DNA from: Escherichia coli
GTDB lineage: Bacteria; Pseudomonadota; Gammaproteobacteria; Enterobacterales; Enterobacteriaceae
Strand: one strand, 5' to 3'
Assembly: GCF_003334315.1 (NCBI RefSeq)
Contig: NZ_QOWR01000003.1
Length of the DNA: 64,000 nt
Shown here: positions 62,497 through 64,000 of the stretch, in pieces
Numbering within the stretch: the stretch's first letter is position 1
How the letters are laid out: every line of letters starts with the position of its first letter
The notes under the pieces: model-generated
What the model was told of the DNA's origin: nothing
What the model saw: only the letters and a program-made list of their open reading frames with translations
Database searches by the model: none
Translations under genes and position numbers: made by a program

Positions 62497-62847
62497 ATGC
62501 ACTCCTGCTAACTTCTTATCGTTTTAACAACTGCTGTGTATTAACCGCATGACCACTACAAAGCGTCAGCCAAATGAAACCGCCCATTGTGACCCATAGC
62601 AAGGTGCTTAGTTCGCCAGCCTGACCATAAGAATTGTTTCGACGGATTTCACAAACCAAAGATTGTTTACATAAGCGGATTAACACGCGCAGGATCACAA
62701 ATGCAGGCATTGGTGAGCAGGAAAAAGATCGTGTTTACGCGCCGTTACGTTTTTAACACTATTATTGCACTAATTCGCCCTTTGCAATCCATCAATGAGT
62801 AGTATAAATACGCTCAGTTACCTTCATTCAATTTATGGACACCACCG

Positions 62848-64000
62848 TTGAAACGTAGTCTGCTTTTTTCTGCCGTGCTGTGTGCGGCGTCATTGACCTC
62901 CGTCCATGCGGCGCAGCCGATCACTGAACCGGAGTTTGCCTCTGATATTGTCGATCGTTATGCCGATCATATTTTTTACGGCAGCGGTGCCACGGGGATG
63001 GCGCTGGTTGTTATCGACGGTAACCAGCGCGTCTTTCGTAGTTATGGCGAAACGCGACCTGGTAATAACGTTCGCCCGCAGCTGGATTCGGTCGTGCGTA
63101 TTGCTTCCCTCACCAAACTAATGACCAGTGAAATGCTGGTGAAATTGCTCGACCAGGGGACCGTAAAGTTAAACGATCCGCTAAGTAAATATGCTCCGCC
63201 AGGCGCACGCGTGCCGACCTACAATGGGACGCCCATTACCCTAGTGAATCTGGCAACCCATACCAGCGCCCTGCCCCGTGAACAGCCCGGTGGCGCGGCA
63301 CATCGTCCGGTGTTTGTCTGGCCAACGCGCGAGCAACGCTGGAAATACCTTTCTACGGCGAAGCTGAAAGCCGCGCCAGGCAGTCAGGCGGCGTACTCTA
63401 ACCTTGCGTTCGACCTGCTGGCAGATGCACTGGCGAATGCGTCCGGCAAGCCTTATACCCAGTTGTTTGAAGAGCAGATTACCCGTCCATTGGGGATGAA
63501 AGACACCACCTACACCCCCTCACCGGATCAGTGCCGCCGTTTAATGGTTGCTGAGCGCGGTGCCAGTCCGTGCAATAACACGCTGGCGGCAATTGGCAGC
63601 GGCGGCGTCTATTCCACGCCTGGCGATATGATGCGCTGGATGCAGCAGTATTTGTCATCTGATTTTTATCAGCGCAGTAACCAGGCAGATCGCATGCAGA
63701 CGTTGATTTATCCGCGCGCGCAGTTTACGAAAGTGATTGGCATGGATGTCCCCGGCAAAGCGGATGCGCTTGGTTTAGGCTGGGTATATATGGCCCCGAA
63801 AGAGGGTCGTCCGGGGATTATTCAGAAGACAGGCGGTGGTGGCGGTTTCATTACCTATATGGCGATGATCCCGCAGAAGAATATTGGCGCGTTTGTGGTG
63901 GTCACTCGTTCGCCGTTGACGCGCTTTAAAAATATGAGCGATGGCATCAATGATCTGGTGACCGAGCTAAGCGGGAATAAACCGTTGGTTATCCCCGCAT
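62848..64000 (+). CDS. ampH: Penicillin-binding protein AmpH (class C beta-lactamase-like), C-terminus beyond window end
   Basis: Frame open from 62848 to the window end; product (M)KRSLLFSAVLCAASLTSVHAAQPITEPEF... with signal peptide and SxxK motif (ASLTK); no in-frame ATG upstream, so a TTG start at 62848 is inferred. Confidence 0.88.
   Translation, partial: MKRSLLFSAVLCAASLTSVHAAQPITEPEFASDIVDRYADHIFYGSGATGMALVVIDGNQRVFRSYGETRPGNNVRPQLDSVVRIASLTKLMTSEMLVKLLDQGTVKLNDPLSKYAPPGARVPTYNGTPITLVNLATHTSALPREQPGGAAHRPVFVWPTREQRWKYLSTAKLKAAPGSQAAYSNLAFDLLADALANASGKPYTQLFEEQITRPLGMKDTTYTPSPDQCRRLMVAERGASPCNNTLAAIGSGGVYSTPGDMMRWMQQYLSSDFYQRSNQADRMQTLIYPRAQFTKVIGMDVPGKADALGLGWVYMAPKEGRPGIIQKTGGGGGFITYMAMIPQKNIGAFVVVTRSPLTRFKNMSDGINDLVTELSGNKPLVIPA

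Follow-up and report, generated by a model that had tools for sequence, protein, structure and literature searches.

The last gene of the window (the whole 64,000-nucleotide stretch of Escherichia coli DNA that was analysed) opens with TTG, and the question raised by this locus is whether translation really begins at that codon and what the choice may mean for the protein. The identity of the gene was established using a profile search, in which the translated product scored 698.6 bits against the AmpH equivalog family NCBIfam NF007943 (cut-off 266). Residues 1–378 aligned to profile positions 1–380 of 380, with residue 1 falling on position 1. The translation was also inspected for the S-x-x-K, Y-x-N and K-T-G motifs of the PF00144 beta-lactamase/class C PBP fold, and these were read as SLTK (IASLTKLM), YSN (AAYSNLAF) and KTG (QKTGGGGG). 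The window's final gene is ampH; its product is a periplasmic DD-carboxypeptidase/endopeptidase belonging to the class C penicillin-binding proteins. The final 1.5 kb of the window contains a divergent gene pair consisting of sbmA on the minus strand, with an open frame that reaches 62502, and ampH on the plus strand. The order in matching genomes is yaiW-sbmA / ampH / iprA, with iprA downstream. The mechanically called sbmA ORF (61276–62502, minus strand) has a GTG start two codons upstream of the RefSeq ATG, giving 408 versus 406 residues, and AGCAGGAGTG lies before the RefSeq-annotated sbmA ATG.

The features that define the ampH reading frame are as follows.

62800–62802, plus strand: TAG closing the ampH frame upstream, inside the conserved promoter block TAGTATAAAT.
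62848–62850, plus strand: TTG initiation codon of ampH, identified from sequence, annotation, conservation and INRI-seq.
62848–64000, plus strand: coding sequence of ampH, truncated by the end of the window after 384 of its 385 codons.

The frame reads TTG AAA CGT AGT CTG from 62848 and is open to the end of the window at 64000. A codon walk upstream from the TTG to the TAG passes through 15 codons (TAT AAA TAC GCT CAG TTA CCT TCA TTC AAT TTA TGG ACA CCA CCG), and ATG, GTG and TTG are all absent from these 15 in-frame codons. An earlier, sequence-only reading had taken TTG as the start and had described the in-frame TAG at 62800–62802 with no ATG or GTG before the TTG. The second statement is correct from the sequence itself, and the first was borne out by the RefSeq annotation, transcription start site (TSS) mapping, in-vitro INRI-seq and the presence of TTG in 80 of 80 species. 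The RefSeq ampH coding sequence starts at exactly this TTG in strain MS15047 and in isolate 30821_1#88, where locus position 1846 corresponds to window position 62848. The K-12 MG1655 gene (b0376; 395130–396287, minus strand, start at 396287) also gave TTG when its first codon was extracted. The TTG start of ampH is already known, being present in the K-12 reference annotation, and is an ordinary though minority choice. What the present analysis adds is the strict conservation of the TTG, the supporting TSS and INRI-seq data and a conserved ATGGA upstream; the classification is unchanged. The consequence for genome annotation is small, with the TTG start already reproduced by NCBI's pipeline.

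The conservation of the start codon was determined by scanning one genome per species, which gave 80 orthologous ampH loci with protein identities of 82–99%. These came from Escherichia, Salmonella, Citrobacter, Kluyvera, Klebsiella, Raoultella, Enterobacter, Leclercia, Kosakonia, Atlantibacter, Franconibacter, Phytobacter and other genera. The codon aligned with AmpH residue 1 was TTG in all 80 Enterobacteriaceae species (81/81 sequences including the window), and the comparison of start-codon context in orthologues that had been suggested as a check on the TTG start therefore returned the same codon in every species. In the 81-sequence codon alignment there are 19 all-leucine columns, of which codon 1 alone is monomorphic while the other 18 use 3–6 synonymous codons, mostly CTG. 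Only three of the 198 degenerate columns with an invariant amino acid use a single codon, and these are codon 1 (TTG), codon 2 (AAA) and Thr97; where the third residue is Arg, as in 79 sequences, its codon is always CGT. With codons 1–3 frozen while the other leucine codons drift, selection acts on the nucleotides of the first ampH codons, which is what a translation-initiation region would be expected to show. In many of the species an in-frame stop lies 4–15 codons upstream of the TTG with no other start between. A minority start codon can be confirmed by comparative data alone, by asking whether a 'leucine' codon is frozen while the true leucine codons drift.

The first homologue search yielded only relatives with at least 85% identity, and more distant orthologues were reached via a representative search and contig look-ups. 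The TTG start was also found in a Serratia-like orthologue with 65% identity and a different gene neighbourhood, in Pantoea latae, in [Pantoea] beijingensis and in one homologue with 51% identity. The in-frame stop is 2 codons upstream of the TTG in the Serratia-like locus and 1 codon upstream in the 51%-identity homologue. A lipoprotein-like homologue with 58% identity has an ATG start. In Yersinia intermedia (L090 601–620), Yersinia ruckeri (L091 601–620) and a third locus (L094 601–625) the TTG-AAA is kept and an ATG lies in frame 5 codons upstream; gene callers start the Yersinia proteins at the ATG of ATGGA, and start the third at a GTG adjacent to the TTG. Automatic calls of AmpH orthologues (P0001, P0017, P0034, P0040 and others) gave lengths of 388, 404, 408, 417 and 430 residues compared with 385 for NCBI, and many callers apparently extend AmpH upstream to an ATG instead of taking the TTG; in other genera some of them miscall the gene.

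The 5' end of the transcript was placed on the window using published TSS data. The table of Kim et al. 2012 gives ampH a 5' untranslated region of 32 nt, supported by 11 reads, and another of 36 nt, supported by 5 reads (PMC3415461), and the flanking sequences listed for the two sites end in ...TATAAATACGCTCA and ...TATAAATACG (PMC3415461 supplement). The resulting features are listed below.

62803–62809, plus strand: TATAAAT, putative -10 box of the ampH promoter, highly conserved in 81 Enterobacteriaceae sequences.
62816 (A) and 62812 (G), plus strand: main TSS with a 32-nt leader and minor TSS with a 36-nt leader, mapped to the window from PMC3415461.
62816–62847, plus strand: ampH 5' untranslated leader of 32 nt, with no in-frame start codon.

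Both TSSs are downstream of the in-frame TAG and of the TATAAAT box, and therefore there is no in-frame start upstream of the TTG on that transcript. The TATAAAT lies 7–8 nt upstream of the main TSS and is likely to be the -10 element of the ampH promoter, and the block around the TAG, TAGTATAAAT, is conserved in at least 90% of the 81 sequences. A consensus scan of 62450–62950 called no sigma-70 promoter, because there is no -35 hexamer at a spacing of 16–18 nt. No unusual RNA structure was predicted for the leader and the start of the coding region (z-score 0.51), and the leader had no match in Rfam at E-values up to 1. Alignment of the leaders of the 81 sequences showed a conserved ATGGA that precedes the TTG by approximately 13 nt, together with a pyrimidine-rich spacer and an invariant block, TTGAAACGT.

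Published evidence for in-vitro initiation at the TTG comes from INRI-seq, in which a synthetic pool of E. coli 5' regions is translated in vitro with retapamulin (PMC9825163). The ampH template contained 30 nt of leader, which includes an out-of-frame ATG, and 150 nt of coding sequence, which includes a GTG at codon 10. A peak of 30–44 CPM was present at the annotated start of ampH, 396287(-), in 5/5 replicates (PMC9825163 Table S2). Peaks were counted in a window 15 ± 3 nt inside the coding sequence (PMC9825163), a position at which ribosomes sitting on the ATG 13 nt before the TTG would not contribute to the count. The complete Table S3 of alternative initiation sites contains no entry for ampH (PMC9825163). 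[quoted passage not shown] 2019, as tabulated in PMC9825163, the ampH start has a value of 0 and no peak, for which low expression is the likely reason. Initiation at the TTG is therefore shown directly in vitro, not in living cells.

The surroundings of the TTG were then compared with those of other genes, for which the candidate ribosome-binding element is as follows.

62837–62839, plus strand: GGA, weak Shine-Dalgarno-like element by position, 8 nt upstream of the TTG, invariant in 81/81 sequences.

The GGA is the only strictly invariant part of the ATGGA pentamer. Its predicted duplex with the anti-Shine-Dalgarno sequence is approximately -3.0 kcal/mol. In the neighbouring 50 kb another 48 genes could be scored, with a median of -5.6, and ampH is among the six weakest of the 49. 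The 50 annotated genes of the same 50 kb start with ATG in 41 cases, GTG in 7 and TTG in 2. UUG starts approximately 3% of E. coli genes and the canonical group AUG/GUG/UUG spans 10–100% of AUG output (Hecht et al. preprint). The description of a TTG start as rare in E. coli was a fair one, given the reported figure of about 3% and the 2 in 50 neighbouring genes. The other TTG start in this region belongs to a 67-residue hypothetical protein between ddlA and iraP in MS15047 (L096 6507–6710) with a weak RBS, and may be an over-call.

UUG is read as fMet by the initiator tRNA, with an output below that of AUG. On the ampH mRNA, which begins 32 nt (minor form 36 nt) before the TTG, the UUG and the weak GGA 8 nt upstream of it would together form an initiation region of low efficiency. 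Acting together, the TTG and the weak site probably hold the synthesis of AmpH at a low level. AmpH synthesis has been quoted at 400–700 molecules per generation (PMC4916385). The strict conservation of the codon suggests, at the level of sequence comparison, that selection keeps AmpH synthesis modest, and the need for a modest level could be the reason that ATG or GTG never replace the TTG. The invariance could also be caused by a constraint that acts on the overlapping conserved block CG-TTGAAACGT for a different reason. The TTG codon, the 5' end of the transcript, the in-vitro initiation of ribosomes at the TTG and the conservation at the nucleotide level are demonstrated, and the purpose of the TTG may be to hold AmpH expression down, as the conservation indicates. 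Taken as a whole, it is very likely that translation of ampH begins at the TTG at 62848, within a probable low-efficiency initiation region that selection for a modest amount of AmpH may have kept.

The conserved sequence upstream of the TTG contains two further features that bear on how initiation might be controlled.

62835–62858, plus strand: out-of-frame mini-ORF, ATG GAC ACC ACC GTT GAA ACG TAG (MDTTVET*), overlapping the TTG start.
62839–62841, plus strand: ACA triplet, 9 nt upstream of the TTG, matching a reported MazF site.

The ampH transcript is among the mRNAs processed by MazF, with cleavage at an ACA 9 nt from the start (PMC5001579 Table 1). The ACA mapped here from the sequence lies exactly 9 nt upstream of the TTG, in agreement with that distance, and cleavage at 62839–62841 would remove the GGA and leave a leader of 9 nt. 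The arrangement AUGGA-N8/9-UUGAAA, near-unchanged from Escherichia to Serratia/Pantoea, could in principle be a dedicated translational control element, with ATG and GTG actively selected against at the start position. Such an element might work in one of two ways: the upstream AUG and the UUG could compete for the same 30S subunit, or MazF could cut the ACA between the AUG and the UUG, removing the GGA. If this were true, the element would tie AmpH synthesis to the IF3 level, growth rate or stress. This interpretation is considered doubtful.

The mini-ORF was examined as a possible working leader. The sequence-only reading had placed its ATG at 62836, out of frame and followed by a stop after 7 codons; the frame and the length are as described, but the ATG, the only one nearby, is in fact at 62835–62837, followed by six sense codons and TAG. 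Across 87 loci, which extend from Escherichia to Serratia and Yersinia, the triplet before the GGA is ATG in 81, and the six non-ATG triplets are GTG (2), TTG (2), CTG (1) and ACG (1). Pairing with the anti-Shine-Dalgarno sequence accounts for the GGA and the A of ATGGA, not for the T. The distance from the triplet to the TTG is 13 nt in 61 of the 87 loci, 14 nt in 20, 15 nt in 5 and 12 nt in 1; in at least five of the six loci with 12- or 15-nt spacing the triplet is in frame with ampH, and it is ATG in four of the six. The mini-ORF has 7 codons in 45 loci, 5 codons in 21 and 30–165 codons in 15, and where it has 5 codons its TGA stop overlaps the ampH TTG.

It is unlikely, in our assessment, that the ATG at 62835 starts a working 7-codon leader ORF (MDTTVET*) which modulates ampH by competition or by termination-reinitiation. 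The retention of ATG before the invariant GGA in 81/87 loci would be consistent with such an ORF, as would the GTG or TTG, which can still initiate, in four of the six exceptions, the AU-rich sequence upstream of the ATG, and the 66/87 loci in which the mini-ORF has 5–7 codons and its stop falls within the first 11 nt of ampH. However, the ATG is not preceded by a Shine-Dalgarno element, the spacing of 12, 13, 14 or 15 nt puts it in different frames among the loci, and in 15 loci the ORF that it opens runs for 30–165 codons. The INRI-seq template contains this ATG, yet no alternative ampH site is listed, and the invariance of the GGA alone fits a ribosome-binding element. The pattern is therefore not that of a leader peptide: the ATG is conserved, but frame and length vary and there is no alternative initiation in vitro. 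MDTTVET* is unlikely to be a functional upstream ORF, as it lacks a Shine-Dalgarno element and gives no sign of initiation in vitro.

At the N-terminus of the protein, two features were considered.

62848–62910, plus strand: predicted Sec signal peptide MKRSLLFSAVLCAASLTSVHA, identified by inspection, with a pattern conserved in orthologues.
62875–62877, plus strand: in-frame GTG at codon 10, weighed and rejected as an alternative start.

With the UUG read as methionine by initiator fMet-tRNA, the product would be a pre-protein beginning MKRSLL... and carrying a Sec signal peptide. The peptide consists of MKRS, a basic n-region with K and R, a hydrophobic core, LLFSAVLCAASLTS, and the sequence VHA-AQ, where the cleavage site was predicted by inspection from the small residues at -3 and -1 of the V-H-A motif. 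The typical signal peptide that had been described for AmpH is indeed encoded, as (M)KRSLLFSAVLCAASLTSVHA-AQP. AmpH is absent from the N-terminomics supplement PMC13245402, and the N-terminal Met cannot be checked on mature AmpH because the signal peptide is removed. A start at the GTG of codon 10, which would make the TTG merely an upstream leucine codon, has in its favour that GTG is commoner than TTG as a start codon and that this GTG is in frame. Val at residue 10, however, is confined to Escherichia and a few other loci, most other genera having Ala there, and a start at this codon would delete the basic Lys-Arg n-region required by the Sec signal peptide. The INRI-seq peak is at the annotated TTG, with no alternative ampH site in Table S3, and the TTG does not vary in its nucleotides, as all other leucine codons of ampH do. 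Initiation at codon 10 is accordingly very improbable.

In another reading, translation begins at the 62835 ATG and enters the ampH frame by a programmed +1 frameshift ahead of the TAG at 62856. The mini-ORF ends at a stop codon and in this respect resembles the prfB frameshift site, which also lies at a stop codon. In Yersinia intermedia, Yersinia ruckeri and one further group the ATG is in frame 5 codons upstream, giving MDKRLLK.... Against this, the frame offset varies by genus, being +1 in most and +2 in Enterobacter and Serratia, and therefore no single frameshift mechanism fits both. There is also no slippery codon, since re-pairing in the +1 frame is impossible for an ACG that is followed by TAG. 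Initiation in vitro peaks at the TTG, and a frameshift would leave the TTG free to vary, when in fact it is invariant. A frameshift start is hardly credible on these grounds.

The proposal that the TTG is an artefact, in which a sequencing error or frameshift in the window removed a normal ATG, was rejected outright, as the identical sequence is found in thousands of independent E. coli genomes and K-12 and 80 other species carry the same TTG. Window positions 62503–63100 are 100% identical to three E. coli genomes and have a match in 5421 of 5426 complete genomes. An exact copy of the 30-mer that surrounds the TTG is present in 5199 of the 5426 complete E. coli genomes, with approximately 220 lacking it, and 30-mers in which ATG or GTG replaces the TTG are present in 0 E. 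coli genomes. Strain MB50 has an IS1 element within the stretch that matches 62503–63100. In strain Res13-Lact-PEA14-20 the match is limited to the first 295 nt of 62503–63100 and lies under iprA, suggesting that ampH is affected by a deletion or rearrangement.

Initiation at the TTG is the reading that is carried forward. The depth to which the TTG and the weak ribosome-binding site are conserved hints that a low AmpH dosage has been selected, which would be relevant to the balance among redundant peptidoglycan hydrolases.

The closest known system is ampH of E. coli K-12 itself (b0376, NP_414910.1; formerly yaiH), a DD-carboxypeptidase/DD-endopeptidase, which is the same gene with the same TTG at its annotated start. 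The upstream 120 nt of the window gene and of K-12 ampH differ at 2 positions, and the neighbours are alike, with sbmA divergent upstream and iprA downstream in matching genomes. The two differ by a few strain-level substitutions, such as P versus Q at residue 297 and T/C at 62833. The AUU start of infC, which is autoregulated through IF3, is likewise a non-AUG start that has been conserved in evolution, and the likeness to ampH is a functional analogy only. Non-AUG starts are discriminated by IF3, as is also mentioned in the Hecht et al. preprint. The UUG of ampH is a canonical start, unlike the rare near-cognate AUU of infC, and ampH is not known to be part of any feedback loop. Other E. coli genes that start with UUG resemble ampH in having a near-cognate start that is read by the initiator tRNA with an output below that of AUG. 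In ampH the TTG is invariant over 80 species and reaches the Serratia-like and Pantoea orthologues.
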